In this document: piece after piece, positions 4,885 through 29,510 of the stretch
How positions within the stretch are numbered: the first letter of the stretch is position 1
Layout: each line of letters opens with the position of its first letter
NCBI GenBank assembly: GCA_963817955.1
Contig: CAWFQK010000004.1
Coordinates: 1,408,001 to 1,472,000 of the forward strand
Direction of reading: 5' to 3'
From: an uncultured Gemmatimonadaceae bacterium
GTDB lineage: Bacteria; Gemmatimonadota; Gemmatimonadetes; Gemmatimonadales; Gemmatimonadaceae
Length of the DNA: 64,000 nucleotides
Notes under the pieces: generated by a model
Told to the model about the DNA's origin: nothing
Databases searched by the model: none
The model's input: only the letters and a program-made list of their open reading frames with translations
Position numbers and translations under genes: made by a program

Positions 4885-5420
4885 GTCATCTGAGCGACGG
4901 CCTGGTCATCCTGAGCGCAAGCGAAGGATCTCTGTGGGCGTATAGACCAGCTGAGCGCAAGCGAAGGATCTCTGTGGGCGTATAGACCAGCTTTTAACGC
5001 AGAGGTCGCAGAGAACTGCAGGAGGTCGCAGAGAACTGCAAGAGAACTGCAGAGAACCGTGAAGGATTGTCTCGCCTGGAAGGCTTGGATGATGCCGTCG
5101 TGAGGCTCCGATGGTATCGCCCAGGTCGGGATCATCAACGATATGGGCGGCCTGATTGTGGACTCGGCATCCACAGTTCATTCCACCGATACGCGCTTCC
5201 TCTTCCGTACGCTTGCAGTTCTCTGTTGCAGTTCCCTTTTCCAGTTTCTCTTTTGCAGTTCTCTTGCAGTTCTCTTTTGCAGTCCTCTGCAGTTCTCCTG
5301 CAGTTCTCTGCGTCCTCTGCGTTAAAAAGCTGGTCTATACGCCCACAGAGATCCTTCGCTTGCGCTCAGGATGACAGGGCTTCGCTCAGGATGACAGGGC
5401 TTCGCTCAGGATGACCAGGC
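4885..5420. mobile_element. Non-autonomous nested-inverted-repeat element, copy 1
   Basis: Arms GTCATCCTGAGCGCAAGCGAAGGATCTCTGTGGGCGTATAGACCAGCT..AACGCAGAG and their reverse complement flank 12-bp AGAGAACTGC tandem repeats and a ~155-bp core shared with other copies. Confidence 0.8.
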
Positions 5421-5457
5421 ATCGCGTCTCCCCTGTCCCGTGTCATTAGTTTGCGCC

Positions 5458-6420
5458 ATGCTTTCTCGCGCCAGAGCACATCTCACCAATCGCAGCGCAT
5501 ACCTGTCGCTCGGCCTTGGCGTGTTCGCCATCGGCTGGTCGGCCATTCTGGTGCGTTGGACCGCCGTGCCGGGGTTGGTCTCGGCATTCTACCGGCTGGC
5601 GTTCGCCAGCATGGTGTTCATTCCGTGGCGCATGTACTCGCCTCGGTACCGGCTCGGCACGGTGCCGAGTGGTGACGGCGCGGTGGTGTTGGCGCGACGG
5701 GCGATCACCGCCCGCCATGCCGCCATCATCGCCGGCGTATTTTTCGGCGCCGATCTCGCCTTCTTCAACTCGGCCGTAATGGCCACGACCGCCACGAACG
5801 CGGCGCTCCTCGGGGTGAACGCCCCGATCTTCGTCGCCATCGGCGCGTGGTGGATGTATGGCGAGCGGCCGGCGCTGCGCTTCTGGCTCGGCTTCCTGCT
5901 CGCCCTGGCCGGCATGATCGCCATCGTCGGGACCGATGTCGTGCTCCATCCGCAGTTGGGCTTCGGCGATCTGCTGGCGATCCTTGGCGCGCTCTGCTAC
6001 GCCGTGTACCTGCTCTTCGTGCAACGCAGCCGGTTGACGATGGACACGTTGACGTTCAGCGTCTGGTCCGCCGCGGTCGGCGCGCTCTGCCTGCTGCCCG
6101 TGTGCCTGTTGTTTCGAGCGCCACTCGGCGGCTTTAGTGAACGCTCATGGGCGGCGCTCGTCGCGCTCGCCCTCACCACGCAGGTGGTTGGGCATGTCCT
6201 CGTGGCACACGCCATGGGTCGTGTGCCGGCGACGCTCTCGTCCATCGTACTCCTCGCCCAAGCGCCCCTCACGGCCATCCTCGCCTGGCCGCTGCTTGGT
6301 GAGCCCATCCGCGCGTCGCAGCTCGTGGGCGGCACACTGGTGCTCGCCGGCATCATGGTGGTGAACGTGAACCGTCTGTCAGCGACTACGGGTTTACCGT
6401 CATCGGCACCGGGCGATTGA
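5458..6420 (+). CDS. DMT/EamA-family transporter
   Basis: Two 5-TM repeats; AFYRLAFA, FGDLLA, LLGEPI..QLVGG. Confidence 0.85.
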   Translation: MLSRARAHLTNRSAYLSLGLGVFAIGWSAILVRWTAVPGLVSAFYRLAFASMVFIPWRMYSPRYRLGTVPSGDGAVVLARRAITARHAAIIAGVFFGADLAFFNSAVMATTATNAALLGVNAPIFVAIGAWWMYGERPALRFWLGFLLALAGMIAIVGTDVVLHPQLGFGDLLAILGALCYAVYLLFVQRSRLTMDTLTFSVWSAAVGALCLLPVCLLFRAPLGGFSERSWAALVALALTTQVVGHVLVAHAMGRVPATLSSIVLLAQAPLTAILAWPLLGEPIRASQLVGGTLVLAGIMVVNVNRLSATTGLPSSAPGD

Positions 6421-7003
6421 GGTAGACCGTCTTGGTCTCGCTGCGGAACTGCAGTATCCGCGAGAACCAGGATTCATCGCGCGGTTCCCCGCCATGATCC
6501 ATCAGGTAACGCGCCACATTGTATGCGTCATCGGGGTCCATGCGTAGGCATCCATGTGACGCAGCCTCGCCAAGGCTCTCTTCCTCGTTGGTGCCGTGGA
6601 TGTAGTAGTCAGGCTCCTTGAAGAAGATCTTCACGACCTGCATCGGATTGGTGGACGCGCCTGGCGGCTGCGGCCTCTCGCGTCTGGCCCAGGGTTGGTT
6701 GGGCGGCACCCAAGCCGGATTCCACTCGATGTGCCGGATCGAGTAGCTCCCGACCGGGGTCGGCATGCTGCCTCGACCCACCGCAACGGGATACGACGCG
6801 ACAACGGAATCCCCGCTCTTGATGTAGAGCTTCCGTGCGCCGAGGTACACCTCCACCCTGACGCCAACGGCGTTGGGAAGCGGGGCAGATGGACGGCGCG
6901 CAACCACGGCCAGTCCGCCAACTGAGAGCGCGGCGAACGCGGCCGTCGTGGCCACGCGCCGCGCTCGCATCACCTTCGACTTCGTTCCGACACCATGCTC
7001 CAT
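6386..7003 (-). CDS. L,D-transpeptidase (YkuD domain)
   Basis: YPVAVG..TPVG and YYIHGT..SHGCLRM catalytic motif. Confidence 0.9.
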   Translation of the reverse strand: MEHGVGTKSKVMRARRVATTAAFAALSVGGLAVVARRPSAPLPNAVGVRVEVYLGARKLYIKSGDSVVASYPVAVGRGSMPTPVGSYSIRHIEWNPAWVPPNQPWARRERPQPPGASTNPMQVVKIFFKEPDYYIHGTNEEESLGEAASHGCLRMDPDDAYNVARYLMDHGGEPRDESWFSRILQFRSETKTVYLNRPVPMTVNP

Positions 7004-7094
7004 CGACGCTGCGCCTGCTCAGGGTCATCGCACAATGTGACGTCTGGCGTCACGCGGTGAATCAAAAGCAAGCCACATTCCAACTCGGGCCTGA

Positions 7095-7985: not shown

Positions 7986-7988
7986 TTC

Positions 7989-8759
7989 TCAGGTGGCCTT
8001 GGGAGTGTGCAAGGCAAATGTAGCACCTTGTGCGTCGATGCACTGAGCGATCCAGTCGCCACCCGGGACTTCCGTTGGACCCATGACGACCTTCCCGCCC
8101 AGGCGGGTCACCTCATTGGCCGCGCGATGGACGTCCGGCACGCGGACATACGACAGCCAGTTTGGGGCCGGCATGTCGGGCGTTCTATTGAACATGCCAC
8201 CGTACGTCTGTCCGTTCTTCCCGAAAATGAAGTACATGCCCATGAGACCCATGTCGAATTCGCGGATCTTTTCCCACTGAAAGATTTCGCGATAGAACTC
8301 GAATGCCGCTTTGTAGTCGGCGGCCATGAGCTCGTGCCACGAGAACTCGCCGACGCCCGGCGTCTCGCCGCCCGCCGGCGCCGCGCCGTCGGGCTCGAAT
8401 AGTCCAATCAACGCGCCCTGTGGGTCCGCGACGACTGCCCAATCGCCAACGGTCGGAATCTCTGTCGGAGCAAGCCGCACCGTTCCGCCGATCGCGGACA
8501 CCTGGCGCGTACACGCGTCCACGTCATACACGCACACGTAGGGGAGCCAGTGTGGACCAATGTGCTCTGGTATGAGGGCATCAGATAGCTCCTCGACCCC
8601 GCCGACCGGGATGCCGTGGTTCGTCCACATATCGTACTTGGGCGACACCTCCGACTGCTGGATACCCCACGATGTGATCGCCGGATAGAACGACTGCGCG
8701 GCCTTACGACTCGAGGTTTTCAGGTCGTGCCAAACGAACTGACCGTGCGCGCTGGGCAT
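7989..8759 (-). CDS. Two-domain VOC/glyoxalase-family protein
   Basis: Duplicated FxWHxL ... WLxYV ... DPQGA modules. Confidence 0.85.
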   Translation of the reverse strand: MPSAHGQFVWHDLKTSSRKAAQSFYPAITSWGIQQSEVSPKYDMWTNHGIPVGGVEELSDALIPEHIGPHWLPYVCVYDVDACTRQVSAIGGTVRLAPTEIPTVGDWAVVADPQGALIGLFEPDGAAPAGGETPGVGEFSWHELMAADYKAAFEFYREIFQWEKIREFDMGLMGMYFIFGKNGQTYGGMFNRTPDMPAPNWLSYVRVPDVHRAANEVTRLGGKVVMGPTEVPGGDWIAQCIDAQGATFALHTPKAT

Positions 8760-8783
8760 ACGATGCGTTGGTGAATGGTGAGC

Positions 8784-9634: not shown

Positions 9635-9927
9635 TTCTGCTCCTGCGCGTGGCGCGACATCCCGACGATCTGCCAGAAAATCTCGCGCACCGGCTCGGGC
9701 GGCAATCCGGCGTCGCGTGCCACAGTAGCCACGCGACGAATGACCGCAGCTTCACGCGTCGGATCGAGAATCGGCAGTCCAGCCGCGCGCTTCAGTTCGC
9801 CCGTGCGCTTTCCCAAAGTGAACCGCTCGGCAAGCAGGCGAATGATGTCGACATCGATGCGTTCAATCTCGCCGCGACGGAGCGCAAGCTCGGCCAGCGC
9901 ACTCTCCTGCTCGGACCGTTCGCTCAT
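9631..9927 (-). CDS. Chorismate mutase (AroQ type)
   Basis: [23 protein letters not shown]; 4-nt overlaps with neighbours. Confidence 0.9.
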
Positions 9928-10982
9928 GCCACGGCTCGGTGTTCGAGGGTCTGGGCATCCATCGACCGGCCCGCCGCTTCGGCAAAGGCAGCAAGACGCT
10001 GCATGATGCTCGCGAACGCTGGCGGTGCGAGGGACTGGTCGCCGTCGGACAACGCGTGTTCCGGGTTCGGGTGCACTTCCACGATCAGCCCGTCAGCGCC
10101 CGCGGCGATCGCTGCGAATGCGAGTGGCGCGACCAGCAAGGCATCGCCACCGGCGTGACTCGGGTCGACGATGACGGGCAGGTGGGTCTCTCGTTTGAGC
10201 ACAGGAATCGCCGAGACATCCAGCGTGTTGCGCGTCGCGGTCTCAAAGGTACGGATGCCCCGTTCGCACAGGACGACATCGTGATTGCCATTGGCCATGA
10301 TGTATTCGGCAGCCATGAGCAACTCCTTGATCGTGGCCGACAACCCACGCTTGAGCAGAACCGGACGCTGGACGTGTCCGAGTTCGGCAAGCAGCGAGTA
10401 GTTCTGCATGTTTCGCGCACCAACCTGCAGCATGTCCGCATGCTCGGCAACGAGATCCACCTGCCGTGTATCCATCACTTCCGTAACGACCGGCATCCCA
10501 GTGGCCTTCCGCGCTTCGGCGAGCAGGTGCAGCGCTTCCTCGCCGAGCCCCTGGAACGCGTAGGGGGACGTGCGTGGCTTGAAGGCGCCCCCTCGCAGCA
10601 TGGTCGCGCCCGCGGCGCGCACAGCCGTGGCAGTTTCGAGCAGCATGTCGCGGCTCTCGACCGAGCAGGGGCCGGCGATGACGGTGATGGTCGAGCCGCC
10701 GAACGTCGCGTTCGCGTCACGGCCGCCGACGCGCACGATGGTGGGATCGACGGCGAATGCGCGCGACGCGAGCTTGTATGGTTTGAGCACCGGCGTCACG
10801 GACTCGACACCGGGAAGCGAACGGAGCGGGATCTCTTCGAGCAGCGATTCGTCACCGATACAGCCGATGATCGTTCGCTGTTCGCCGCGCGACAGGTGCG
10901 TGCGCATGCCGACGGACTCCACGCGCTCGCGGATGTGGTCGACTTCGGCGTCGGTGACATGGGGTTTGGTGATGATGATCAT
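9924..10982 (-). CDS. aroF: DAHP synthase (type I-beta, N-terminal ferredoxin-like regulatory domain)
   Basis: [36 protein letters not shown] and DPSHAGG. Confidence 0.95.
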
Positions 10983-11038: not shown

Positions 11039-11070
11039 AAAAAAAACGACCCGTGATTTCTCACGGGTCG
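11039..11070 (-). terminator. Attenuator terminator hairpin upstream of aroF
   Basis: Minus strand CGACCCGTGA-GAAA-TCACGGGTCG followed by T8. Confidence 0.9.
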
Positions 11071-11099
11071 CTGGGGTTGGTTTGCGGAGTGGGCTGACT

Positions 11100-11237: not shown

Positions 11238-11891
11238 TAACAGACTGTTGAAAGAGGGCTGGACAGGAGTCAGAAGCTCGAGGGCATGCGCATCACTTCG
11301 AGGGCCGGAACAGCTTTCTACCGCAGAGCGGCCGAACAGCTTTCTACCGCAGAGCGGCCGAACAGCTTTAACGCAGAGGTCGCAGAGAACTGCAAGAGAA
11401 CTGCAGAGGACTGCAAAAGAGGACTGCAAAAGAGGACTGCAAAAGAGAACTGCAAAGAGAACTGCAAAAGAAGACTGCAAAAGAGAACTGGAAAGGGGAA
11501 CTGCAAGAGAACTGCAAGAGCGAACTGGAAGCGTACGGAAGAGGGAAGCGCGTATCGGCGGAATGAACCGTGGATGCCGAGTCCACAATCATTCCGCTCA
11601 TATCGTTGATGATCCCGACCTGGGCGATACCATCGGAGCGTCACGACGACATCAGCCAAGACACCCAGGCGAGACCATCCTTCACGGTCCTCTGCAGTTC
11701 TCCTGCAGTTCTCTGCGACCTCTGCGTTAAAAAGCTGGTCTATCGGTCACCGAGATCCTTCGCTTGCGCTCAGGATGACAGCCCGTCGCTCAGGATGACA
11801 GCCCGTCGCTCAGGATGACAGCCCGTCGCTCAGGATGACAGCCCGTCGCTCAGGATGACAGGCGATTCACTCGTAGTTCAACAGTCCGTTG
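11238..11891. mobile_element. Nested-inverted-repeat element, copy 2 (inverted relative to copies 1 and 3)
   Basis: Outer TIR AACAGACTGTTGAA / TTCAACAGTCCGTT; core at 11532-11688; 12-bp and 26-bp tandem repeats; five 20-bp CGCTCAGGATGACAG units at 11768-11861. Confidence 0.8.
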
Positions 11892-12446: not shown

Positions 12447-14129
12447 CTAGAACAATCCCACGATCTCGCCGCTTGGCAACCGGGCCATCCGCTCGGCCGC
12501 AGGCTCCTTCGGCAAACCAGGCATGGTCATGATGTCGCCGCACTGCGCAACGATGAAGCCGGCGCCGGCCGATGCACGAACCTCGTTGACTGAGACGCGG
12601 AAGCCGCGGGGACGTCCGAGTTTCGTGGCGTCGTCGGTGAGCGAGTACTGTGTCTTCGCCATACACACCGGCGTATTCCCGAGCCCGATCGACTCGAGAT
12701 ACTCGATCGCGCGATCGGCAGCCGGCGTGTAGTCGGCACCGTCGCCGCCGTAGATCTGCCGAACGATGATGTCGATCTTCTGCTTGATCGGCCAGTCGGT
12801 TGGGTACAACGGACGGAATTCGGCGCCCTTCTTGTCGAGGACTGAGAGCAACTCTGCGCCGAGTGCTTCACCGCCAGCGCCACCCTTCTCCCAGACCTCC
12901 GTGAGTGCAACGGGCACGCCGAGGCGAGCGGCATAATCGGCGACCATCTGCAGCTCGGCCTCCGTGTCGGACGTGCGCCGGTTGAGCGCCACGATGCCCG
13001 GCACGCCGAAATGCTTCACGTTCTCGATGTGCTTCTCGAGGTTGGGCAGCCCGCGCTCGAGCGCGGCCAGGTCTTCCACACCGAGATTCTTCTTGTCGCC
13101 GCCGCCATGCATCTTGAGCGAGCGCACCGTGGCGACGATGATTGCGGCTTCCGGCTGCAACCCGCCCGCGCGGCACTTGATGTTAAAGAACTTCTCCACG
13201 CCGAGATCGGAGCCGAAGCCTGCTTCCGTGACCACGATGTCGGCGAGCGCGAGCGCCGAGCGCGTGGCGAGAATGCTGTTACAGCCATGCGCAATGTTGC
13301 CGAACGGGCCCGCGTGGACGAACGCCGGGCCGCCCTCGAGCGTCTGCACGAGATTCGGCCTGATGGCGTCCTTGAGCAGCAGCGCCATGGCTCCGGTCGC
13401 GCGCAACTCGCCGGCAGTCACGGGACGGCGGTCCTTGCCGGCCGTCGAACCGACGATGATGCGCGCCAGCCGTTCTTCGAGATCCTGCGGACTCGATGCG
13501 AGCGCGACGATCGCCATGATCTCGCTCGCAGGAATGATGACGAAGCGTTCCTCGCGTGGAATACCGTCGCCGACTCCCCCCAGACCAATGATGCAATGAC
13601 GCAGCGCGCGGTCATTCATGTCGATGGTGCGCGGCCAGGTGATGCGGCGCGGATCGATATGGAGCTCGTTCCCTTGCTGCAGATGGTTGTCGAGCATGGC
13701 CGACAGCAGCGCGTGCGCCGTCGAAATCGCGTGGAAGTCGCCGGTGAAGTGGAGGTTGATGTCATCCATCGGGACCACCTGCGCATATCCACCGCCCGCG
13801 GCGCCGCCCTTCACGCCGAACACCGGGCCCAGGCTTGGCTCGCGAATACAGAGGGCAACACTCTGGCCCATGCGCCGGAGCGCCTGCGCCAGGCCGACGG
13901 ATACGGTGCTCTTCCCTTCTCCGGCCGGTGTCGGATTCGTCGCTGTTACGACGACGAGGCGGCCGCGGATGGGACGTTGCGACACCTCGAGCGGAATCTT
14001 CGCTTTGTATTTGCCATACAGATCGAGCTCGTCGCGCTGGAGTCCCAACTCCGCGGCAACGTCCTCGATCGGACGCATCTTGACGCGCTGTGCGATTTCA
14101 ATATCGGAAGGAACAGTGGATACGGCCAC
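12447..14129 (-). CDS. fhs: Formate--tetrahydrofolate ligase
   Basis: NPTPAGEGKST, GVKGGAAGGGYAQV, GPFGNIAHGCNS and IMTMPGLP. Confidence 0.97.
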   Translation of the reverse strand: MAVSTVPSDIEIAQRVKMRPIEDVAAELGLQRDELDLYGKYKAKIPLEVSQRPIRGRLVVVTATNPTPAGEGKSTVSVGLAQALRRMGQSVALCIREPSLGPVFGVKGGAAGGGYAQVVPMDDINLHFTGDFHAISTAHALLSAMLDNHLQQGNELHIDPRRITWPRTIDMNDRALRHCIIGLGGVGDGIPREERFVIIPASEIMAIVALASSPQDLEERLARIIVGSTAGKDRRPVTAGELRATGAMALLLKDAIRPNLVQTLEGGPAFVHAGPFGNIAHGCNSILATRSALALADIVVTEAGFGSDLGVEKFFNIKCRAGGLQPEAAIIVATVRSLKMHGGGDKKNLGVEDLAALERGLPNLEKHIENVKHFGVPGIVALNRRTSDTEAELQMVADYAARLGVPVALTEVWEKGGAGGEALGAELLSVLDKKGAEFRPLYPTDWPIKQKIDIIVRQIYGGDGADYTPAADRAIEYLESIGLGNTPVCMAKTQYSLTDDATKLGRPRGFRVSVNEVRASAGAGFIVAQCGDIMTMPGLPKEPAAERMARLPSGEIVGLF

Positions 14130-14144
14130 GACAAGGTCCTCAGG

Positions 14145-14984
14145 TTAGGGCAGTCCGGAAATGCGATGCATTCCGGTGTACACGTTCGCGCTTCTTCCCC
14201 TCAGCAATCCCACCAACGTCATGCCCGCCAACTCGGCATATTGAATGGCCAAGCCAGTGGGCCGTGAGACCGCGGCGATCAGCTCGACGCCGATGGCGGC
14301 GGCCTTCTGCACCATCTCATAACTCGCACGGCTCGTGACGACCACCAACCCGTCGCACGTCTGTGTGCCGGCCCGTGCGAGCGCACCGAGCACTTTGTCG
14401 AGCGCGTTGTGCCGCCCGATGTCTTCGCGTACGACGTGCAACACGCCGTCGGAGGTACCCCATCCGGCGGCGTGCACGGTGCTCGTCACGTGATTCAACG
14501 ACTGGCGGCGCGTCAGTTCGCCGCCAGCTCGCCACAGAGCCTCCGCGCTCACGTGAAGCGCTGACTGAACGCGGCCCGGTACGCGGAGCGCGTCGCCGAT
14601 CGTTTCGACGCCGCACAATCCACATCCGGTGCGCGCGGCAAGCATGCGCGCCCGATCCTGCAAGCGGTCGGCGTCGGCCGCGGCAATCTCGATCTGCACC
14701 TCAACCCCGTGACTGGCGCGGACCACGTCCACACGACCGACCGCCGACGCGTTCGCGACAACACCTTCGGTGATGCTGAACCCGATGGCCAGATCCTCGA
14801 GGTCCGCCGGCGTGCTCATCACCACCACGTGCGGCCGTCCGTTGTACACGAGCGCGACGGGGACTTCTTCCGCGACGACTACCGATGCCGGCTCGACGCC
14901 GGCGTCGCTCAAGCGAACGATCGAACGCTCCGATGACGGCTCGGTGTAGCCAAGCCCGAACAGCAAATGCTCAGCGGCGTCCAT
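14145..14984 (-). CDS. fdhD: Formate dehydrogenase accessory sulfurtransferase
   Basis: EEVPV, TGCGLCG, REDIGRHNALDK and TSRASYEMVQK. Confidence 0.93.
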   Translation of the reverse strand: MDAAEHLLFGLGYTEPSSERSIVRLSDAGVEPASVVVAEEVPVALVYNGRPHVVVMSTPADLEDLAIGFSITEGVVANASAVGRVDVVRASHGVEVQIEIAAADADRLQDRARMLAARTGCGLCGVETIGDALRVPGRVQSALHVSAEALWRAGGELTRRQSLNHVTSTVHAAGWGTSDGVLHVVREDIGRHNALDKVLGALARAGTQTCDGLVVVTSRASYEMVQKAAAIGVELIAAVSRPTGLAIQYAELAGMTLVGLLRGRSANVYTGMHRISGLP

Positions 14985-15987
14985 TCCCGCCATTATCGCC
15001 ATTTGTGTCGAGGTTCTGCACGAAGCGCCAACCGAAACGGCCTTTGATGCACAGGTTGCCCTGCGTGATGGTGTTCTCGAGCGGCGAGGTCGCTTTCACG
15101 ATCTCACCGTCGTCGACATGCAGGCGCAGCGTGCAGCCAACGCCGCAGTAGGGGCAGATCGTGTCTGTCGTCGTCACGCGGGACTCATCCCACGTTCCCG
15201 CGCCGCGCTTGTCGAACTCCGTCTTTGCCATGAGCGCGCCCGTGGGGCAGACGGCAATGCAATTGCCGCAATAGACGCACGCCGACTCCGGCAGCGGCAC
15301 GGCAAACTCGGTCGAGATGTGCGCGTCGAAACCACGGCCGGCTACGGCAATCGCGAAGCTGTTCTGATGATCAGGTCCACACGCTTCTGTGCACTTGTAG
15401 CAGAGGATGCACTTGGCGTAATCGCGCACGTACAGATCATTGTCGATCGTCGCCGGCTCGGCGACGGTCGCCGCGACCTCGGGACTGGGAGGCGCATGAT
15501 GTCCGGGCACGGATGCGTCGCGCGTCCCGGCAGGCGCCGGCGGTGCGGGCGGCCCGAACCGTTCCGGCTTGGCGCCATATTCGTCTAGCCACTCGGCGAT
15601 CTTCGGCGTGGTGGAGAGATCGACCGAGGACGCCAGCAGCTCGAGGACGAGCTTGCGGCTATGCTTGACGCGCTCCGATTTGGTGTGCACCACCATGCCC
15701 TCCTCGGCCGCGCGGGCGCAGGACGGCACGAGTACCCGCGCGCCCTCGAGCTCCACGACACAGATCCGGCAGGCATTCACGGGGTGCAACGTCTCCAGGA
15801 AGCACAGCGTCGGGATCTCGATTCCGATCTCCCGGCATGCGGCAAGGATGGACGTCCCCTCGATCACGCTGACGCGTTGTCCGTCGATCGTGAGCGCAAT
15901 GGTGCGCGTCGACTGACGACGCGACTGGTCGGTCGCGTAGGTCGGACGCTGCAATTGCACGAGCGGGCCAGTGTGGACGGCGGTCAT
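14971..15987 (-). CDS. FDH Fe-S subunit: [2Fe-2S], 2x[4Fe-4S] and the molybdopterin-Fe4S4 domain
   Basis: IPTLC..NACRICVVE..C; CILCYKC; CVYCGNCIAVCP; C-terminal TICPYCGVGC..LCIKGRFG. Confidence 0.88.
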   Translation of the reverse strand: MTAVHTGPLVQLQRPTYATDQSRRQSTRTIALTIDGQRVSVIEGTSILAACREIGIEIPTLCFLETLHPVNACRICVVELEGARVLVPSCARAAEEGMVVHTKSERVKHSRKLVLELLASSVDLSTTPKIAEWLDEYGAKPERFGPPAPPAPAGTRDASVPGHHAPPSPEVAATVAEPATIDNDLYVRDYAKCILCYKCTEACGPDHQNSFAIAVAGRGFDAHISTEFAVPLPESACVYCGNCIAVCPTGALMAKTEFDKRGAGTWDESRVTTTDTICPYCGVGCTLRLHVDDGEIVKATSPLENTITQGNLCIKGRFGWRFVQNLDTNGDNGGNGRR

Positions 15988-15991
15988 GGCA

Positions 15992-17899
15992 TCACGATCC
16001 GGTGAGCAAATCAACTCTATGAATTGCCGACTCGATCGCCGCGTATGCAGCCTGGCCAAGTCCGCAGATTGACGAATCCTTCATTGCCGCGCCCACGTCG
16101 TCGAGCAGCGCAATCTCCGCCGCCACGCCGCCGCGCGTCTTACCGCACGCAATGCGGTGCAGCGCCTCCTCCTGCCGTACGGTTCCCACGCGGCACGGAA
16201 CGCATTGGCCGCACGACTCGTCCCGGAAGAACGCCGCAATGCGCAGGAGAATCTGCGTCATGTCCACGCGATCGTCGAACGCGACGATGACACCGGAGCC
16301 GAGCGTCGCCTTGGCGGCTCGCACGCCCTCGAAGGTGAGCGGGATATCGAGGTCCTGCGGGCCGACGAACACGCCGGCGGCCCCGCCGAGCAGAATTGCC
16401 TGAAGCGACCGCCCGTTCGCCACCCCGCCCGCCATGGCGAGCAGGTCGCGCAGCGACTTGCCGAACGGTACCTCGTAGACACCGGGGCGCGAAACGTTGC
16501 CGCTGAGACAGAACAATTTCGTTCCCGTGGACTGCTCCGTGCCAATGCGCGAGAACGCCTCGCCGCCACGCAGAACGATATCCGGGATGTTGGCCAGCGT
16601 CTCGACGTTGTTGATCACCGTCGGCAGACCAAAGAGTCCAGCCTGCACGGGGAATGGCGGCTTGTTGCGCGGCTCTCCGCGATAGCCTTCGATGGAGTTG
16701 AAGATCGCGGTCTCTTCGCCGCAGATATACGCGCCGGCGCCGCGACGAATTTCCATGTCGAACGCGAACCCATGGCCGAGAATATTCTCGCCCAGGAATC
16801 CGTGCGCGCGTGCTTCACAGATGGCATGCTGCATTCGTGCTGCGCCAAGCGGATATTCACCGCGAATGTAGACGAAGCCGCGCTCGCAGCCGGTGGCGTA
16901 CGCCGCGATGATCATGGCCTCGACGACGGCGAACGGGTCTCCATCGAGTAGCACGCGGTCCTTGAATGTCCCGGGCTCCGACTCGTCCGCGTTGCAGACG
17001 AGATAGTGCGGGTGCGCAGCCTGTTTGGCGACGGCCTCCCACTTGCGGCCGGTGGGGAACGCAGCACCGCCGCGGCCCATCAGCTTGGAGTCGACCACTT
17101 CCCTGATCACCGCATCGGGTCCGATCTCGAGCGCGCGACGTAGCGCAGCGAAACCGCCCGCGGCCCGGTACGCGGAGATGTCGGAGGGATCGACGGTCCC
17201 GACGCGTTTGAGCAGCGACAGGGATGGGTCACCGCGTTGCGGGAGGTCTTCCTGTGAGAAGCCCTGCGTCTGACTGGCCGGCGCGGACGCGAGATCGGTC
17301 GCGACGGTCGGGATGACGGTCCTGGCCTTTTCCAGCGTCAACTCGCCAATCAGATACTCGCGTGGCGTCACGCCGGCCTGCTGAACGAATGCCGCCGGCG
17401 CATGATCACATAACCCTAAACAGGGCGAGCGCATCCACGTGGCGCTATTCGGATGCACCGTGACGTGATCGCCCGTCGGTCCGTGCGCATGAGCGGGGCC
17501 AACGGTGCGCTCGATCTCTGCGATCAGCTCTGCCGCGCCCTTGCACCGACACGCGACGTCATCGCACACGTGCAGGACCCGGGGGGCGCGCGGCGTTGTG
17601 GAGAGCAGCGCGTAGAATGTTGCCACGCCCCATGCATCGGCGGGTGGCACCCCGAGACGCGTGCACACGTACTCGAGGCCCGTCTCACTGATCCAGCCAA
17701 CGCGCGCCTGCAATGCCCGGAGTGCCGGCAGAAGCAGGTGTCGCTTCTCCCGCATGTCGCGTCCGCCAAACGCCACGCGAGCATCGCTGGGATCGCCACG
17801 CGCGCCGCCGTCCCATTGTGAGTCCGGAGCGCCAAGCAGCGCATCCACCGCGGCGCGCTCGTCTTCAGTTGGCGTAGCGTTCCGCAGATGCAGATCCAT
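15992..17899 (-). CDS. NuoE-NuoF-like fused FMN/NADH-binding (diaphorase) subunit
   Basis: GVATFY..VCDDVAC..CLGLC; GRGGAAFPTGRKW; NADESEPGTFKD; YICGEET; ESCGQCVPCR..ICGLG. Confidence 0.9.
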   Translation of the reverse strand: MDLHLRNATPTEDERAAVDALLGAPDSQWDGGARGDPSDARVAFGGRDMREKRHLLLPALRALQARVGWISETGLEYVCTRLGVPPADAWGVATFYALLSTTPRAPRVLHVCDDVACRCKGAAELIAEIERTVGPAHAHGPTGDHVTVHPNSATWMRSPCLGLCDHAPAAFVQQAGVTPREYLIGELTLEKARTVIPTVATDLASAPASQTQGFSQEDLPQRGDPSLSLLKRVGTVDPSDISAYRAAGGFAALRRALEIGPDAVIREVVDSKLMGRGGAAFPTGRKWEAVAKQAAHPHYLVCNADESEPGTFKDRVLLDGDPFAVVEAMIIAAYATGCERGFVYIRGEYPLGAARMQHAICEARAHGFLGENILGHGFAFDMEIRRGAGAYICGEETAIFNSIEGYRGEPRNKPPFPVQAGLFGLPTVINNVETLANIPDIVLRGGEAFSRIGTEQSTGTKLFCLSGNVSRPGVYEVPFGKSLRDLLAMAGGVANGRSLQAILLGGAAGVFVGPQDLDIPLTFEGVRAAKATLGSGVIVAFDDRVDMTQILLRIAAFFRDESCGQCVPCRVGTVRQEEALHRIACGKTRGGVAAEIALLDDVGAAMKDSSICGLGQAAYAAIESAIHRVDLLTGS

Positions 17900-19887
17900 C
17901 AATCGTCTCCAGCAGCAGCAAGGGATTCGGTCCGGTGCGCCATGTGGGATGGAACAGTTTCCGCCCGCTCGACGCGCACCGCACAGGCCTTGTATTCGGC
18001 GGTGCCCGATTTGGGATCGGAGGCATCGATCGTCAACAGGTTCGTCGCGACAGCGTCCTGAAAATGAAACGTCATGAACACGACGCCTACCGGCAGCGCG
18101 CGATCGATGCGTACCGGCGCCCGGACGCTTCCTCTTCGCGACGTCACGCGAACGGTATCGCCGTCTGCCACGCGAAGCCGTTGGGCATCTTCCGGCGAAA
18201 TGTCCAGAAATTCCCCACGATGCAGTGGCGACAGATAGCCGCCCGTCTGCACGCCCGTATTATACGACTCGAGCGAGCGTCCCGTTGTCAGAACGAGGGG
18301 GAATTCATCGCAAGGTGGCTCGGCCAGCCCCTCATGGTGCACGATCGAGAAGGGCGCGAGCCGGCCGCGCTTTGCTAGATCAGTGTCCCAGAGCCGGGCG
18401 TGCAGGAACTTGGTGCCCGGGTGCGACTCGTCGGGACAGGGCCACTGTAGCCCACCAAGCGCCTCGAGGCGGGCATAGCTCATTCCCGCCAGATCAGGCG
18501 CGAGCGACCGCAACTCGTTCCAGATCTGCTCCGCACTCTGGTGTTCCCACACATAGCCCATACGACGGGCGAGCTCGCCGATGATCCACAGCTCGTCGCG
18601 CGCGTCACTGGGAGCATTCACTGCCTTGCGCACGCGCTGTACCCGGCGCTCGCTGTTCGTGACCGTTCCCTCTCCCTCTGCCCACGTCGCGGCGGCGGGG
18701 AACACGACGTCCGCGAGTTGCGCGGTCTTGGTGAGGAAGATGTCCTGCACCACGAGATGGTCGAGCTGCGACAGCAACGCGGTAACGTGGCCGGCGTCGG
18801 CGTCCGACTGCACGGGGTTCTCCCCGATGATGTAGAGGGCCGTGAGGTCCCGGCGCTCCATTGCCTCCATCATCAGCGTGAGCGTCCAGCCATTCTCAGG
18901 GAGAATGTCGCGTCCCCAGGCGCGCTCGAACTTTGCGCGATGCTCAGGATTGGTCACGTCCTGAAAGCCGGGCAGCTTGTTCGGCAACGCGCCCATGTCG
19001 CCGCCGCCCTGCACGTTGTTCTGGCCGCGCAATGGGTTACATCCGCAGCCGTACCGACCCACATGGCCGGTGAGCAACGAGAGGTTGATCAACGCGAAAA
19101 CGTTGTCCGCCGCGTTGTGGTGTTCGGTAATGCCGAGCGTCCAGCAGATGGTGGCGCGATCGGCAGTCGCGTATGCGTGCGCCGCATCGCGAATCACGTC
19201 GGCCGGCACACCGGTGATGCGGGCGACGTAGTCGAGCGTGTACGGCTCGACAGCGTCGCGGTATGCGGCGAAGTCAGTCGTTGCACGCGCGATGAACGTC
19301 TCGTCGGCCAGGCCGGCGTGAATGATCTCGCGTGCCATGCCATTGGCCAGCGCGATGTCAGTGCCCACGTTGAGACCGAGCCACACATCGGCCCATTCCG
19401 CGGAGCTGGTCCGCCGCGGATCGACGACATAGAGCGTCGCGCCGTTCTGGATTCCCTTCAGGAGATGATGGAACCAGATCGGATGCGCCTCACGGGCGTT
19501 CGATCCCCAGAGGAACACGAAATCCGTGTGCTCCATTTCCTCGTATGAACTGGTCGAGCCGCCCGCTCCAAAGATTGCCGTCAGACCGACGACGCTGGGA
19601 GCGTGTCAGGTTCGATTGCAGCTATCGATGTTGTTGTTACCGAACACCTGCCGAGCGAATTTCGAGGCAGCAAAATTCACCTCGTTGGTCGATTTCGAGC
19701 AGCTGAAGATTCCAGTCGCCTTCCGTCCACTCTGGGACAGATTGCGCATGAATCCTTCAGCGGCGCGGTCGAGCGCTTCGTCCCAGGAAGCGGGCCGGAG
19801 AACTCCGTTATCGCGAACGAGGGGCTGCGTGAGGCGGGGGTACGCGCCCGGCGGGCTGGAGCGAGACTTCTTCACGTGCATCTCCAT
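17899..19887 (-). CDS. fdhF: Selenocysteine-containing formate dehydrogenase catalytic subunit (in-frame UGA at 19606-19608; start 19887, 19881 or 19875)
   Basis: ORFs 19606-20052 and 17899-19536 are in frame: NNIDSCNRT-U-HAPSVVGL. Also LRGQNNVQG and GTVTNSERRVQ. Confidence 0.92.
19562..19605 (-). promoter_or_regulatory. Bacterial SECIS hairpin
   Basis: After UGA: CGCUCC..GUCGUC-GGUCU-GACGGC..GGAGCG. The apical GGUCU resembles the E. coli fdhF SECIS. Confidence 0.8.
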
Positions 19888-20057
19888 AAGATAATTGCCG
19901 TTACATGGAGATTGGCTGCACGGCCACGAGGAGGCAAGCCCTTGTGTATGGGGAATTCCTGAGCACGGCGTTACAGCGCCATTATTCGTCGATTTTCTCG
20001 GATTCTTGGACCTACTGTTTGCTGTCGCCAATAACCGTTGGTGGCCCATCACAGCCT

Positions 20058-20534
20058 AACAGACTGTTGAACGACGAGTGAATCGCCAGTCATCCTGAGC
20101 GAAGCGAAGGATCTCTGTCAACGATAGACCAGCCTTTGAACGCAGAGGTCGCAGAGAACTGCAGGAGAACGCAGAGAACTGCAAGAGGACCGTGAAGGAT
20201 TGTCTCGCCTGGAACTCCTGGCTGATGCCGTCGTGATGCTCCGATGGTATCGCCCAGGTCGGGATCATCAACGATATACGCGGAATGATTGTGGACTCGG
20301 CATCCACGGGTCATTCCACTGATACGCGCTTCCTCTTCCATACGATTGCAGTTCTCTGTTGCAGTTCCCTTTTCCAGTTCTCTTGCAGTCCTTTTGCAGT
20401 TCTCTTTTGCAGTTCTCTGCAGTTCTCTTGCAGTTCTCTGCGTCCTCTGCGTTCAAAGCTGTTCCGGCCCTCGAAGTGATGCGCATGCCCTCGAGATTCT
20501 GACTCCTGTCCAGCACCGTTTCAACAGGCTGCTA
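20058..20534. mobile_element. Nested-inverted-repeat element, copy 3
   Basis: TIR TAACAGACTGTTGAA / TTCAACAGGCTGCTA; core at 20190-20344; both outer arms match copy 2 in reverse. Confidence 0.8.
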
Positions 20535-25640: not shown

Positions 25641-27367
25641 CACTCAACGGTTTGCAAGACACTGTCGCGCACGACAATCGTCGTGTCGGCAAAGCCCTCG
25701 CTGGTTACGACGTGAAGGTGAACCGGACGCTCGCGCGCAACACCGCACAGGATGAAACGACCACGATCGTCGAGGTCCACGGCTTGTTGAGCACCATTCA
25801 CGACGGCCGTCGGCGCGTTGCCGCTGCCGTTCAGCTCGACCATCGACCCGTTGTTGTACGTCGCCTGCCAATCAGTGTGGAGTGCGGCATGCCGCAGCAG
25901 TTCGCGGTCGGCAAAGACGACGCGGCCAGCGACCGCCGTCGTGCGCGACAGACTCGCCTGTCCCTTGCACAGTCGACCTGTCAGTTCGCGCTGCGGAATA
26001 AGCGACGGCGTATACGCGGACATGCCACCACGCCGGACGTCGATCTCACGCTGTTCCACGCGCTCAGCCAGGAATAGCGCGAGGGACGTATCTGCCACGG
26101 CGATCGCGTAGCGTCCTGGAATGAGCGGCGTCATGCTGAACGCCCCGGTCACATCCGTCGTAACGGAATCGGCAGTGCCGCGCAGCGTGACGATGGCATT
26201 CGCGATGGGCGCACCGCTGCCGCGTTGTGTCGCCACGCCGGCGATTCCCGTTGCCGGCTCGTGCCAACTCGTGCCGTCGCTCCATTTCGCCTCGAGCAGC
26301 ACGCCGCCGTTTTCGTGGATGCGGTCAACGCGCAGGTCGAGTCGATCCTGCCGGCGATTGGTCCCCGGCACCGACTGACGCCGGGAGGAGCTGGCGGGTA
26401 TTGGCGACATCACGGGCAACCGAAGCGCCCAGCGTTCAATGAACGATACGCCGTTCTCTACGGTGTGGAACTCGAGATGTCCTCCGGCGCCGGCGATCAT
26501 TGCCGCCGGTTCGAGTTCAGTGAAGCGGAAATCGAGAGCACGCAGCTCGGGTCTCGCCGCATCCATCCACAGGACGCCGGATACGTTGACCAGCGTGTCA
26601 CGCGCGAGCGGTGCAAACGCGAGTCCGACCTCGCCTACGTGCTCGTCATCGATTCGCAAATGAAAGCAGTGCGTCGCGGCGAACGATTCGTCGAACAGCA
26701 CGTCGGCATCCGGACCATTGAATGTTCGACCTGTCGCATCCTCCTCCATGTAGCCGCGCGCTGCAAACACCGACGGTGCCCGCGCCGCAATGAAGGGACG
26801 TGTTGTCCGGCCGGAGCGCGGAGTCATCGTTTGGTTGAGCACCAAGCCAGTCGCCGGCGCGGTGCTACGCTCGTACAACAACGTCGTAGCGATCGCCGGA
26901 TTCGCATCGCGCGCGACGATCGCGGCCAGCAATCCGGCACGCGCCTGTTCCCATAGCAGGAATGCGCCAGTGCGATCCGTTGAGCCGGGGCACAGCTCCT
27001 GATCGGACACGCGCACGGCATCCAGCATTGGCGGGATCGCCAACAACGAGAGCACGACGGATGCGTCGCCCGGCCCGGCGGGAAACGTGACGTCATGCGG
27101 CTGGTACCCGATGCGAATCACACGCAGGCGTGCGGCGCGCGGTGGCCGGCCGAGTGTGAACCGACCGGCACCGTCGGCAATTGTCCGCTGGAGCGTCTGC
27201 CCGGCCGAATCGACTACCGATACTACGGCGCCCGGCAAAGGGGCGGCCGCTGTACTGTCGCGCACGACTCCGCGCACCTGTTGGGCGCGGAGCACGCCGG
27301 CGCCCAACAACAACGCGAGCACGGGGAGCAATCGCTCAGTGAACCACATATCTATCTGTAATGACAC
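25526..27367 (-). CDS. Secreted carboxypeptidase-regulatory-like domain protein
   Basis: Signal peptide; VRGVVRDS..PLPGAVV..GRFTL..RIGYQP; a second similar domain follows. Confidence 0.75.
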   Translation of the reverse strand: MSLQIDMWFTERLLPVLALLLGAGVLRAQQVRGVVRDSTAAAPLPGAVVSVVDSAGQTLQRTIADGAGRFTLGRPPRAARLRVIRIGYQPHDVTFPAGPGDASVVLSLLAIPPMLDAVRVSDQELCPGSTDRTGAFLLWEQARAGLLAAIVARDANPAIATTLLYERSTAPATGLVLNQTMTPRSGRTTRPFIAARAPSVFAARGYMEEDATGRTFNGPDADVLFDESFAATHCFHLRIDDEHVGEVGLAFAPLARDTLVNVSGVLWMDAARPELRALDFRFTELEPAAMIAGAGGHLEFHTVENGVSFIERWALRLPVMSPIPASSSRRQSVPGTNRRQDRLDLRVDRIHENGGVLLEAKWSDGTSWHEPATGIAGVATQRGSGAPIANAIVTLRGTADSVTTDVTGAFSMTPLIPGRYAIAVADTSLALFLAERVEQREIDVRRGGMSAYTPSLIPQRELTGRLCKGQASLSRTTAVAGRVVFADRELLRHAALHTDWQATYNNGSMVELNGSGNAPTAVVNGAQQAVDLDDRGRFILCGVARERPVHLHVVTSEGFADTTIVVRDSVLQTVEWMATPRHIVAPSGRRPKIPRWTARWMLRNRLLGWPDVI

Positions 27368-27442
27368 GGGACCTCTTCCCGCCCCTGCTCTCGGACCGCA
27401 AATGGATCCCAGTGAGTACCTGCGCCGTTCATGACGTGTTCA

Positions 27443-27488
27443 CAAACGAAAACCCCCGCCGAGGATGCTCGGCGGGGGTTTTCGTTTG
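27443..27488. terminator. Intrinsic terminator downstream of the porin gene
   Basis: CAAACGAAAACCCCCGCCGAG..CTCGGCGGGGGTTTTCGTTTG. Confidence 0.85.
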
Positions 27489-27502
27489 GACTGCGAGGTC
27501 GA

Positions 27503-28891
27503 CTAGAAGCCGATCGCACCCGAGACCATGAAGCCACTGAACTTGCCGCCACTGCGGATGTCGGTGAGCGGGAAATTGTCATACGTCTGATTGACCCACT
27601 CGGCCTTGGCGAGGACGTTCGGCGTCACGAACCAGCCGCCGCCAATCTGATACCGGCTCGTGCTCTCGTCCGCTGAACTCTTCGAGATCAGTTGGCCCTT
27701 GAGCGTGTTGTAGCGGCCACCGACGTAGAACTTGTCGCGCGCGAAGCGGTACAGACCCTCGTATACGTTCTGGTGCAAGGTGCGGAGCTTCGGTTCGGTG
27801 AAGGCGCCGCCAGTCGCGGTCTCGAAGTTCCCGAAGAACTCTGCGCCGCCGATCTTGACGAACGGATTGATGACTTCGGCGTTCACCTTGTTCGAGAAGC
27901 CCGGATGAATCTCGCCCGACCAGGCGTTCGCCGTTTCGGTGGAGGCGGTGTTCTCGAGGACGTCGTAGTATGGCGAGCCGCCACGGTCGCCGCTGAACAG
28001 CGTGTTGCTGGCGGCCTTGTTATTCGCATAGAACGATCCGGTCAGACGGACGCGGACATTATCGGCAACTTTGGAATCGAACCCGAACTTGCCGAGCGTC
28101 GACAGCGTGCGCGCAGCCGGCGCGGTCACCTGACCATGCACTTCGCCACCCGTCGCTCCGAGCATCGCGAGCCACGGGCCCTTGCGGAAATACGCCTCGG
28201 AACCGATTTCGGTCGTGAAGTCATCCAGGATGTAATTGCCGACGAACGGGTTGAACATGGAGTTGCCGTTGTCGCTGCGACGGAAGTGCGAGTCGCCGTA
28301 GTTGATCTCGAAGTGGCCAACGCGAAGCGTGGTGTACTTGAAGAGGGTGTTCAGAAGTTCGTTGTCGATCGGCGACGCATCAACGAGCAGGTAGCCGTCC
28401 TTGACCCACGTTTCCTGATGGTGGCGCGCCGAGAGGTACGACGTCATGGCAACGCGAATCCCTGGGGCGATCTGCGCGTTGATGTACAGGTTTGCGACCG
28501 CGTTGTTGAAGCCGTGTCCGATCGTAATGAGCTGATTCTGATTGACGCCACTCACGAGCACCGGACTGGCCGCGTTCTGGTGCGCCAAGCCCTGAAATTC
28601 CTGCGTGAAGGCGCCGCCGAACGACAGGTTGAAACCCGTAAACGGCACCGTGCTCTCTTTCAGCGGTTCGAACATGTTGAGACCACGCTCGTCGTTCGGA
28701 CGGATGTGATCAATATCGATCGCGCGGAACAAGCTGACCTTCTGCGCATCTTCCTTGGCGTTCGCGCTGTCTGTGCGCGTAGCTGCTGCGGTCGACTTGC
28801 CGGTGCTGTTGACAGGCTGCTGCGCGGTCAATACGCCTGCAGCGGATGTCGCCACAAGGGCGGCGAATCCGAGTCTCGTTAGATGTAACAT
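27503..28891 (-). CDS. Outer-membrane beta-barrel (porin-like) protein
   Basis: Signal peptide, amphipathic beta strands and C-terminal Phe (SGAIGF). Confidence 0.75.
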   Translation of the reverse strand: MLHLTRLGFAALVATSAAGVLTAQQPVNSTGKSTAAATRTDSANAKEDAQKVSLFRAIDIDHIRPNDERGLNMFEPLKESTVPFTGFNLSFGGAFTQEFQGLAHQNAASPVLVSGVNQNQLITIGHGFNNAVANLYINAQIAPGIRVAMTSYLSARHHQETWVKDGYLLVDASPIDNELLNTLFKYTTLRVGHFEINYGDSHFRRSDNGNSMFNPFVGNYILDDFTTEIGSEAYFRKGPWLAMLGATGGEVHGQVTAPAARTLSTLGKFGFDSKVADNVRVRLTGSFYANNKAASNTLFSGDRGGSPYYDVLENTASTETANAWSGEIHPGFSNKVNAEVINPFVKIGGAEFFGNFETATGGAFTEPKLRTLHQNVYEGLYRFARDKFYVGGRYNTLKGQLISKSSADESTSRYQIGGGWFVTPNVLAKAEWVNQTYDNFPLTDIRSGGKFSGFMVSGAIGF

Positions 28892-29280
28892 GGGGGAGGA
28901 CCTCTGGTCGGGGGGATCGTACGGTTCGAGCGTGAACTGGTCTGAACCAGTCTTTGGACAACGCTCGAACTGGCGATGAAGCTATTCCCGATCAAACCAC
29001 CATTCCGTCCGGTAAGGTGCCCGCTCCTAGTGCGGAGTTGCTTGTTATTTGGTGAGGAGAGTCCCTACGCTCCGGGAGTCCAGAACGGATGATTGCCTTA
29101 CTGCACAATGACGTGACCTTTCATGCCAAGCGCTGCGTGCGGGACGACCAGTCGAGTCCAAGCAGTGCTGGGTCGTCAGTGTGAATGTGACTTGCACCCT
29201 AGAGGTGATTCACCATTCGGATGATCCCAGCTCTTGACCCCATCACGCAGATGATCCCAGCTCTCAGCTGCGCGACTCCA

Positions 29281-29510
29281 AGCGTCACGACGGCATCATC
29301 CAACACATCCAGGCGAGACAATCCTTCACGGTCCTCTGCAGTTCTCTTGCAGTTCTCTGCAGTTCTCTGCGTTCAAAAAGTTGTTCTACCGGCCACCGAG
29401 ATCCTTCGCTGCGCTCAGGATGACAGGGAGCGAAAGAGATCCTTCGCTTCGCTCAGGATGACAGCATCGCTCAGGATGACAGGCTTCCCGTGTCCCGTGT
29501 CCCGTGTCTT
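29281..29510. mobile_element. Half copy (copy 4) of the nested element plus heptamer repeats
   Basis: Partial core CCAGGCGAGACAATCCTTCACGG, TTGCAGTTCTC repeats, 3x CTCAGGATGAC, then (CCCGTGT)n. Confidence 0.75.

Follow-up and report, generated by a model that had tools for sequence, protein, structure and literature searches.

The stretch of DNA analyzed here (the window) comprises 64,000 nucleotides of an uncultured Gemmatimonadaceae bacterium (positions 1,408,001 to 1,472,000 of contig CAWFQK010000004.1, assembly GCA_963817955.1; positions below are counted from the first letter of the window). It codes for ordinary proteins, among them a histidine kinase, an EamA transporter, a DAHP synthase, an MgtE protein, formate dehydrogenase subunits and a P-type ATPase, and between these genes lies a family of dispersed, non-coding, modular and hairpin-forming repeats of roughly 0.5 kb, whose existence is confirmed by this analysis. 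Three full copies, a half copy and a lone arm had been listed by an earlier reading made from the letters of the window without any database search (the sequence-only reading), and all of them were recovered in place or a few bases away.

The repeat family in the window

Repeats were detected by reading four regions, by exact-seed repeat finding, with Tandem Repeats Finder and by a sensitive self-BLAST of the window, and the results of these approaches agree. As judged from the self-BLAST, repeated DNA is confined to six sites, namely the three full copies, the half copy, the site of the solo arm and a stand-alone run of heptads (Table 1); the only further match outside these sites is a 35-nt pair at 2120-2154 and 26679-26713. 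Motif counts were compared with those in dinucleotide-preserving shuffles of the window. The motif GTCATCCTGAGCG occurs 19 times with at most two mismatches, as against 3.27 expected occurrences, and none of 100 shuffles reached this number. Fourteen of these matches (13 exact and one with a single mismatch) are located in the elements, and the remaining five, with two mismatches each, lie outside and are probably due to chance. Similar enrichments were obtained for GCGAAGGATCTC (8 found, 0.60 expected), for AACGCAGAGGWCGCAGAG (6 found, 0.17 expected; two per full copy, in inverted orientation), for the heptad CGTGTCC (11 found, 1.41 expected) and for AACAGACTGTTGAA (4 found, 0.13 expected). 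The latter is confined to the ends of copies 2 and 3, which bears out the outer terminal inverted repeat that had been assigned to these two copies.

Table 1. Coordinates of the repeat elements and of their modules in the window.
Feature	Position	Strand	Remarks
Copy 1, symmetric form	4883..5444	+	562 bp; boundary by self-BLAST; GC 0.555
Copy 1, left outer arm	4885..4995	+	one degenerate 20-bp GTCATC unit, then GTCATCCTGAGCGCAAGCGAAGGATCTC..ATAGACCAG
Copy 1, short array	4996..5056	+	AACGCAGAGGTCGCAGAG end, then ~5 GCAGAGAACT-type units
Copy 1, core	5057..5211	+	~155 nt, unique, non-coding
Copy 1, long array	5212..5323	+	8-10 TTGCAGTTCTC-type units, 10-13 bp, terminating in CTCTGCGTCCTCTGCGTT
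Copy 1, right outer arm	5324..5415	-	left arm repeated exactly in inverted orientation, with two additional 20-bp GTCATCCTGAGCGAAGCCCT units
Degenerate CGTGTCC heptad module adjoining copy 1	5416..5446	+	
Copy 2, asymmetric form, opposite in orientation to copy 1	11238..11890	-	653 bp
Copy 2, outer inverted repeats	11239-11252 and 11877-11890		
Copy 2, alternative arm	11253-11302		
Copy 2, 26-bp x2.5 tandem	11303-11369		
Copy 2, long array	11370-11527		
Copy 2, core	11533-11687		inverted
Copy 2, short array	11688-11731		
Copy 2, GTCATCC arm	11732-11779		
Copy 2, 20-bp x4.8 exact tandem	11767-11861		
Copy 2, spacer	11862-11876		
Copy 3, asymmetric form	20058..20534	+	477 bp
Copy 3, outer inverted repeats	20058-20071 and 20520-20533		
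Copy 3, spacer	20072-20088		
Copy 3, GTCATCC arm	20089-20138		
Copy 3, short array	20139-20189		
Copy 3, core	20190-20344		
Copy 3, long array	20345-20456		
Copy 3, alternative arm	20457-20519		
Truncated (half) copy	29281..29510	-	part of core, short array, GTCATCC arm, heptad run
Half copy, part of core	29281-29331		
Half copy, short array	29332-29371		
Half copy, GTCATCC arm with partial repeat units	29372-29480		
Half copy, heptad run	29486-29510		
Solo GTCGTCCTGAGCGAAGCGAAGGATCTC arm site	53220..53301	+	heptad run 53220-53257, then arm 53262-53300
Stand-alone CGTGTCC heptad run	327..366	+	4.9 units; 329-363 in the motif count

Architecture of the elements

Read from the outside to the inside in the orientation of copy 1, the elements begin with an outer flank of one of two kinds. 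The first is a run of CGTGTCC heptads, which was recognized as a further outer module and abuts the GTCATCC arm on the right side of copy 1 as well as in the half copy and the solo arm; the second, present in copies 2 and 3, consists of the inverted repeat AACAGACTGTTGAA (14 bp) and a CGAGTGAATCGCC spacer. The outer 14-mers differ from their inverted partners by one mismatch in copy 2 and by two in copy 3, and thus qualify as terminal inverted repeats in the sense used for MITEs (miniature inverted-repeat transposable elements). The next layer inward contains one to five 20-bp tandem units, each of which repeats the first 13 nt of the arm, followed by the GTCATCC arm itself with the layout GTCATCCTGAGCG(C)AAGCGAAGGATCTC…ATAGACCAGC and, inside of it, by a T/A-rich junction. 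The arrays are entered via AACGCAGAGG(T/A)CGCAGAG and continue with units of the type GCA(A)0-3GAG(A/G)ACT, 3-5 of which lie to one side of the core and 8-12 to the opposite side, the two arrays being inverted to each other. These units had been described as variable-number 12-bp repeats; their number indeed varies, but the period ranges from 10 to 13 bp rather than being fixed at 12 bp.

In the center of each full copy lies the unique core of ~155 nt, which had been read as the conserved part shared by the full copies and does show 92 % identity in each pair among them (aligned lengths of 196, 179, and 150 nt). The half copy retains 51 nt of this core within an 80-nt match to a full copy (94 % identity). 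An attempt to extend the half copy leftwards as decayed core was rejected, as the score of 21 compares with a mean of 19.3 and a maximum of 29 in shuffles.

The three full copies adopt two different forms. Copy 1 is symmetric, as had been seen before, with inverted outer arms identical at 46 of 46 positions and arms complementary over 45 nt at 100 % and over 53 nt at 96 %. Copies 2 and 3 carry on the side of the long array a different arm of 80 nt, which is common to both of them (93 % identity), again in agreement with the sequence-only reading. The possibility that this alternative arm is a diverged inverted partner of the GTCATCC arm was discarded, since its z-score is only 0.74 and a score as high was reached by 122 of 500 shuffles. 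Tandem duplications occur at the ends of modules, namely the 20-bp (x4.8, 100 % identity) and 26-bp (x2.5, 97 %) repeats of copy 2 and a 40-bp repeat (x2, 100 %) in the left arm of copy 1 at 4911-4990; the right arm of copy 1 was scored by Tandem Repeats Finder with a period of 20, 2.8 copies and 97 % identity.

Nature of the core

The core is non-coding and represents neither a gene nor a stable RNA. An alternative would be that it is a multi-copy small gene for a peptide of ~55 residues, or a small RNA, and that the repeats are no more than its flanks. In all three copies, the core can be read through in one open frame, 10 of 20 substitutions fall on the third codon position of this frame, and the central 40 nt are invariant in the three copies, all of which would suit a small gene. 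However, the split of the 20 gap-free variable columns over codon positions 1, 2, and 3 (7/3/10) is not significant (hand-computed chi-square of ~3.7 with 2 degrees of freedom), and the open frame is less telling in a window of 64 % GC, long open frames being common in GC-rich DNA. Further evidence against the gene comes from two related open reading frames (ORFs) in public protein sets, P0004 and P0009, in which a match to the core peptide is followed by sequence read from another frame of the same DNA. Because they leave the frame inside the core, the copies must differ by frame-shifting indels, and the small-gene version is largely refuted. Moreover, no Pfam family was recognized in the ORFs that cross the elements. 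As for a small RNA, the predicted RNA folds of the two strands are no better than those of shuffled sequences (z of -0.54 and -0.94), and a search of the whole window against Rfam 15 gave no match at the gathering score; at lower stringency, copy 1 returned only noise with E values of 4.7 and 8.4, and copy 2 returned nothing at E<=1. We therefore regard a small gene or RNA in the core as highly improbable.

Relatives in other genomes and in protein sets

A scan of a genome collection with a 20-mer from the array as query returned seven loci, five of which belong to two metagenome-assembled genomes (MAGs) of Gemmatimonadaceae (four contigs from the first and a single contig from the second). 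Three of these five loci are located at, or within ~70 bases of, a contig end. Neither the core of the window nor the motif GTCATCCTGAGCG of the GTCATCC arm was found at any of the seven loci, and none of these is orthologous to the window. The MAG represented by four contigs bears an element family of its own, whose inverted arms TCAACAGCTCACGCAGAGAACTGCAGGAGAACCGCAGAG… include a 21-mer identical to the arm in the window and surround a different core of ~100 nt. The sites of this family are found at 9800-10400 of locus L001, 4826-5130 of L003, 9940-10245 of L004 and 1-215 of L007, with inverted arms of the CAGCTCACGCAGAG type; three ATCCGYG motifs are present in the core. The element is flanked on either side in L003 and L004 by a directly oriented block of ~45 nt (GTGTCGGTGCAG.AGCCGG.TCGTCAAC), and L001 contains several units in mixed orientation.

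The two remaining loci were not accepted as relatives, because the match in Oceanispirochaeta, a spirochaete (L002), stands alone in unrelated DNA and that in Gorillibacterium (L005) belongs to an 11-bp microsatellite located at the end of a contig; both are due to chance or unrelated. Note that the latter contig, from a Firmicutes MAG, begins with six exact GCAAGAGAACT units (29-95) made up of the same 11-mer as in the arrays of the window, which could be either a chance microsatellite or a mis-binned fragment.

Since ORFs are called across the elements, the core also leaves traces in protein sets. A profile search with the core peptide among 1.84 billion representatives yielded six proteins at E<=0.001, namely the core-bearing ORF of the window itself (183 residues), P0004, P0009, the distant P0012, and the very long P0010 and P0011 (4489 and 2507 residues; E values of 3e-5 and 1e-4), which we assume to be low-complexity matches. 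A word-indexed search of 5.8 billion protein clusters retrieved P0009, the ORF of the window and P0004 alone. The contig given for P0004 equals in length (1,711,990) that given for the ORF of the window, so that P0004 very probably stems from a further copy of this genome located outside the window. P0009 is encoded on a 92-kb contig and tracks copy 3 through the alternative arm, array, core, array, GTCATCC arm, spacer and outer inverted repeat, beyond which the sequence is unrelated. From these matches, the family with the core of the window appears to be narrowly distributed, and the arm type is common to more genomes of the Gemmatimonadaceae. The shared arms and the GC content of the window also point to a Gemmatimonadaceae genome as its source.

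We expected the GTCATCC arm to be a repeat of many phyla, often located beside GIY-YIG genes, but a search with an arm-derived peptide (one frame, proteins of 63-202 residues) gave no match among 10 candidates, and the idea of a pan-phylum hairpin was dropped. No match to copy 1 was present in a plasmid collection, nor any to copy 2 in a phage collection. The literature search revealed no description of the family or of interspersed repeat families in Gemmatimonadota, which, together with the lack of an Rfam match, agrees with the proposal that the element is possibly undescribed.

Copying and remodeling of the elements

The 3.5 copies in the window are dispersed over unrelated intergenic contexts in both orientations and are 92-94 % identical. 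Copies 2 and 3 and the DNA encoding P0009 share the same asymmetric order of modules up to and including the outer inverted repeat and then continue into different flanks. The occurrence of this asymmetric layout at three loci indicates that the composite was copied as one unit.

This bears directly on an alternative in which each layer would be a separate small mobile element, and these elements would have inserted independently into the tips of one another's hairpins, in the way known from pneumococcal repeats. The layers would then be the heptad run, the GTCATCC palindrome, an element made of the GCAGAG array plus core, and an element bounded by AACAGACTGTTGAA. Some modules are indeed found by themselves, such as the GTCATCC arm, which at the solo site is joined by a heptad run but by neither array nor core, the heptad run alone at 327-366, and the array-type arms without a GTCATCC arm at the MAG loci (GTCATCCTGAGCG in 0/7). 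Moreover, in copies 1 and 2 the array element has TTAA at either border, at the center of what would be a perfect palindrome. However, TTAA is its own reverse complement, which renders a duplication indistinguishable from an inverted repeat, and in copy 3 the corresponding bases are TGAA at one junction and TTCA at the opposite one, an inverted rather than direct arrangement, which therefore does not represent a duplication. The array-plus-core element never occurs alone in the window, and three copies at different loci have the complete asymmetric arrangement in common; it was thus the composite and not its layers that spread most recently. We therefore consider nested independent insertions an unlikely explanation of the family.

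The elements have also been changed after their dispersal. The outer arms of copy 1 are not only identical to each other at 46 of 46 positions, but also share a private variant (…CTGTGGGCGTATAGACC…) found in no other copy, and they match the arms of the other copies at 37/41 to 48/51 positions. In a similar way, the two arms of an element carry the same base in front of AACGCAGAG, namely T in copies 1 and 2 and G in copy 3. The identity of the arms and their private variant point to copy 1 having become symmetric by copying its own arm across the hairpin. Fold-back or template-switch copying may have been responsible, or else selection for pairing, and no module would have been acquired from another element. 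Thus, the suggestion that modules are exchangeable is correct in part only and does not hold for the symmetry of copy 1. Tandem units within one copy are 97-100 % identical, while the copies differ by ~8 %. Because the units are more uniform than the 92 % identity between copies, they must have arisen in place after the copies had separated. Every layer shows slippage-type expansion, and half copies and solo arms result from truncation.

Composition, folding and genomic context

The GC content of the elements (0.53-0.56) is lower than that of the remainder of the window (0.644). As single-stranded DNA, the full copies are predicted to fold with z-scores of -21.8 (copy 1), -6.85 (copy 2), and -8.96 (copy 3), and none of the shuffled sequences folds as well. 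With sizes of 477-653 bp, a lack of coding capacity, a GC content below that of the surroundings and extensive base-pairing, the elements share these features with MITEs.

All copies are intergenic, as previously proposed, and their neighbors are ORFs with ordinary Pfam domains. Copy 1 lies between the divergently oriented genes for the histidine kinase and the EamA transporter, and copy 2 between those for DAHP synthase and a DinB/DUF1569 protein, which are also divergent. Copy 3 spans the gap from the MgtE stop codon (20532-20534), which is touched by its right end, to the longest ORF for the formate dehydrogenase subunit. The first ~55 residues of this ORF do not appear protein-like, so the true start is probably located further downstream. 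The half copy is found upstream of the stop of the P-type ATPase. No common functional theme was found among the genes adjoining the copies. Promoter-like and terminator-like sites do not occur above chance in the three full copies; a single promoter-like site in the alternative arm of copy 3 shows a 9-of-12 match, with 0.3 such sites expected per region.

These data are relevant to a further alternative, according to which the repeats are maintained by the host as cis elements. The arrays would bind a DNA- or RNA-binding protein, and the hairpin would serve as a regulatory, nucleoid-organizing or mRNA-processing site. Such a role would be consistent with periods of 10-13 bp (about one helical turn) and 20 bp (two turns), with the position of copies 1 and 2 between divergent genes and of copy 3 filling the gap between MgtE and formate dehydrogenase, and with the identical 21-mer of the arm around a different core in the other Gemmatimonadaceae MAG; furthermore, effects on gene expression are reported for BOX, BIME, ERIC and Correia elements in the account given in PMC3049150. 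On the other hand, the chance level of promoter-like and terminator-like sites, the free variation of unit number and length between copies, the existence of a truncated copy and a solo arm, the lack of a functional theme among the neighboring genes and the near absence of the core family from public protein predictions all argue against selection by the host, which we judge to be quite unlikely.

Several further features were recorded in the surroundings of the copies. Outside copy 2, a strong terminator-like hairpin with a 12-bp stem followed by T8 is located at 11045-11072 on the minus strand, ~60 nt upstream of the start codon of DAHP synthase at 10982; it may represent a leader or attenuator of this gene of aromatic amino acid synthesis. 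The intergenic region containing the stand-alone heptad run (327-366) also harbors a separate 42-bp tandem repeat at 52-177 (2.6-3 units, 69-84 % identity), which is unrelated to the family. Immediately to the left of the heptad run and solo arm, at 53175-53205, a hairpin GGAACGGCACACC..GGTGTGCCGTTC followed by TTTG looks like the terminator of an upstream gene. Cytochrome c maturation genes (CcmA/B/C/F-like) and at least five multihaem cytochromes are densely clustered at 47278-63993, together with a B12-binding radical SAM protein, and suggest an extracellular or periplasmic electron-transfer module. Next to copy 3, the gene for a molybdopterin oxidoreductase (17899-20052, minus strand) appears to be split into two ORFs by a single in-frame TGA codon, which is read through as ...CNRTUHAPSVVGL..., presumably the selenocysteine context of formate dehydrogenases. 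Its neighbors (12447-20052) code for FdhD, a NuoF-like subunit, an Fe-S subunit and formate-tetrahydrofolate ligase. The split gene probably encodes an intact selenoprotein and is not a pseudogene.

Discussion

We favor, with some reservation, an explanation in which the family is a lineage-specific, non-autonomous and non-coding palindromic mosaic repeat that was spread in trans and reshaped in place. The propagated unit appears to be a composite of ~0.5-0.65 kb, starting with the 14-bp outer inverted repeat, a spacer, the GTCATCC arm and the short array of 10-13-bp GCA(A)nGAGAACT repeats, and continuing with the unique 155-nt core, the long inverted array, the unrelated alternative arm and the second outer inverted repeat. 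It would be spread by an enzyme encoded elsewhere, which may recognize the inverted short-repeat arms or their hairpin, probably in single-stranded DNA, and the core would then act as cargo or as a spacer. As shown by the sequence, the elements were remodeled once in place: slippage altered the number of the 7-, 10-13-, 20-, 26- and 40-bp units, copying across the hairpin equalized the two arms of one element and thereby gave rise to the symmetric copy 1, and truncation left behind half copies and solo arms. Because target-site duplications are lacking and the arms evolve in a mirrored fashion, a route via hairpins or single strands is more plausible than cut-and-paste transposition by a DDE enzyme.

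Several observations weigh against this explanation. No transposase, RAYT (Y1), GIY-YIG, HNH or other nuclease was recognized by Pfam among the 63 ORF translations of the window, in which a transposase had already been reported as missing, and no transposase, RAYT, GIY-YIG or HNH gene was found among the 34 ORFs neighboring the MAG loci either. Target-site duplications, a search for which had been proposed as a check on mobility, were not detected at the outer inverted repeats of either of the two copies bearing them: the flanks are ..gtccct and gacacc.. at copy 2 and ..cagcct and ccgcaa.. at copy 3, and copy 1 likewise lacks a direct repeat. In addition, only three core-bearing ORFs are present among the 5.8 billion protein clusters, one of them from the window itself, although such a count is a weak proxy for copy number. 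Finally, a T/A difference between the left and right inner arms has been retained in copies 1 and 3, indicating that the arms were incompletely homogenized.

The identical 21-mer around a different core in one Gemmatimonadaceae MAG makes the arms look like the conserved recognition part of these elements. A more far-reaching proposal, which we put forward as a speculation with little chance of being correct, is that a Gemmatimonadaceae-wide DNA-handling enzyme, which mobilizes hairpin elements without target duplication, uses the short-repeat arms (CAGCT..CGCAGAG..GCAGAGAACTGCAGGAGAAC) as its cis sites. If so, different genomes would carry different cores between arms of the same kind, and the unequal arrays of 3-5 and 8-12 units would act like the multi-site ends of Tn7 or Mu. 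The ends of Tn7, Mu and the plant CACTA and Ac/Ds elements contain several subterminal binding sites that are unequal on the two sides, and the inverted short-repeat arrays flanking the interior of the present elements resemble them in this respect. They differ from such ends in that the number and length of their units vary between copies, as in slippage-prone minisatellites.

If the arms were the recognition sites of a conserved enzyme, the family would represent a new mobilization system in a poorly studied phylum; otherwise, it would add one more family to the mosaic repeats of bacteria. In either case, the combination of a conserved core, mirrored evolution of the arms and tandem expansion in place within one layered element provides a compact natural record of how palindromic repeats spread, become symmetric and decay. 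Elements of this sort are also of practical concern, as they break short-read assemblies, as seen from the MAG loci at contig ends, and generate spurious ORF calls such as the 183-residue ORF of the window, P0004 and P0009 in public protein sets. The family is a real and unusually layered mosaic repeat that is not catalogued in Rfam and is unsurprising in kind, with a presumed mobility.

Comparison with known repeat families

The sequence-only reading had classified the elements as REPIN/MITE-like. This is appropriate with respect to their inverted repeats, low GC content, strong folding and lack of coding capacity, but not with respect to target-site duplications and the spacing of REPIN arms. 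The classical MITEs (Correia, ERIC, RUP, Nezha), as characterized in PMC3049150, share with the family their small size, terminal inverted repeats, low GC content, tight folding and non-coding nature. However, the definition of a MITE given there requires a target-site duplication, which is not seen here, and the present elements are larger and more layered. Moreover, no insertion sequence with ends like those of the elements was found among the 63 ORF translations of the window or the 34 ORFs of the related loci.

In their inferred behavior, the REPINs come closest. According to PMC3116915, these consist of inverted short arms that fold into a hairpin as single-stranded DNA or mRNA, contain no coding gene, and show mirrored (compensatory) changes across the hairpin, as encountered here in the arms of copy 1 and in the junction base; their singlets are read as decay products. 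The same source describes them as being mobilized by a single-copy RAYT (Y1/HUH) transposase encoded elsewhere. Differences concern the distance between the arms, which is 71 or 110 bp for the REPINs of strain SBW25 compared with ~430 bp between the GTCATCC arms of copy 1, and the presence of the GTCATCC arm on one side alone in copies 2 and 3; moreover, no RAYT is encoded in the window, and the number of copies of the present family may be low.

The closest parallel in design is provided by the BOX elements of Streptococcus pneumoniae and S. suis, which are described in PMC3049150 as repeats of 67-637 bp with the order boxA - boxB(n) - boxC and with boxE/boxF ends in S. suis. As far as this description goes, both families are strongly folded, composite and modular intergenic repeats with a variable number of internal tandem units; alternative end modules around the same internal module are also known from the BOX elements of S. 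suis, and clusters with nested insertions have been reported. The tandem units of the present family are arranged differently, forming two inverted arrays around a unique core of 155 nt instead of one direct array between two ends, and BOX elements are reported to generate target-site duplications (PMC3049150), none of which were seen here. BOX elements also belong to another phylum and are not known to be related in sequence. A mosaic organization is likewise known from the BIMEs, which are portrayed in PMC2817692 and PMC3333891 as combinations of REPs with other motifs. Neither the strict definition of a MITE nor that of a REPIN fits the layout of the elements in the window, and REP/BIME mosaics and the modular BOX elements are their closest analogues.

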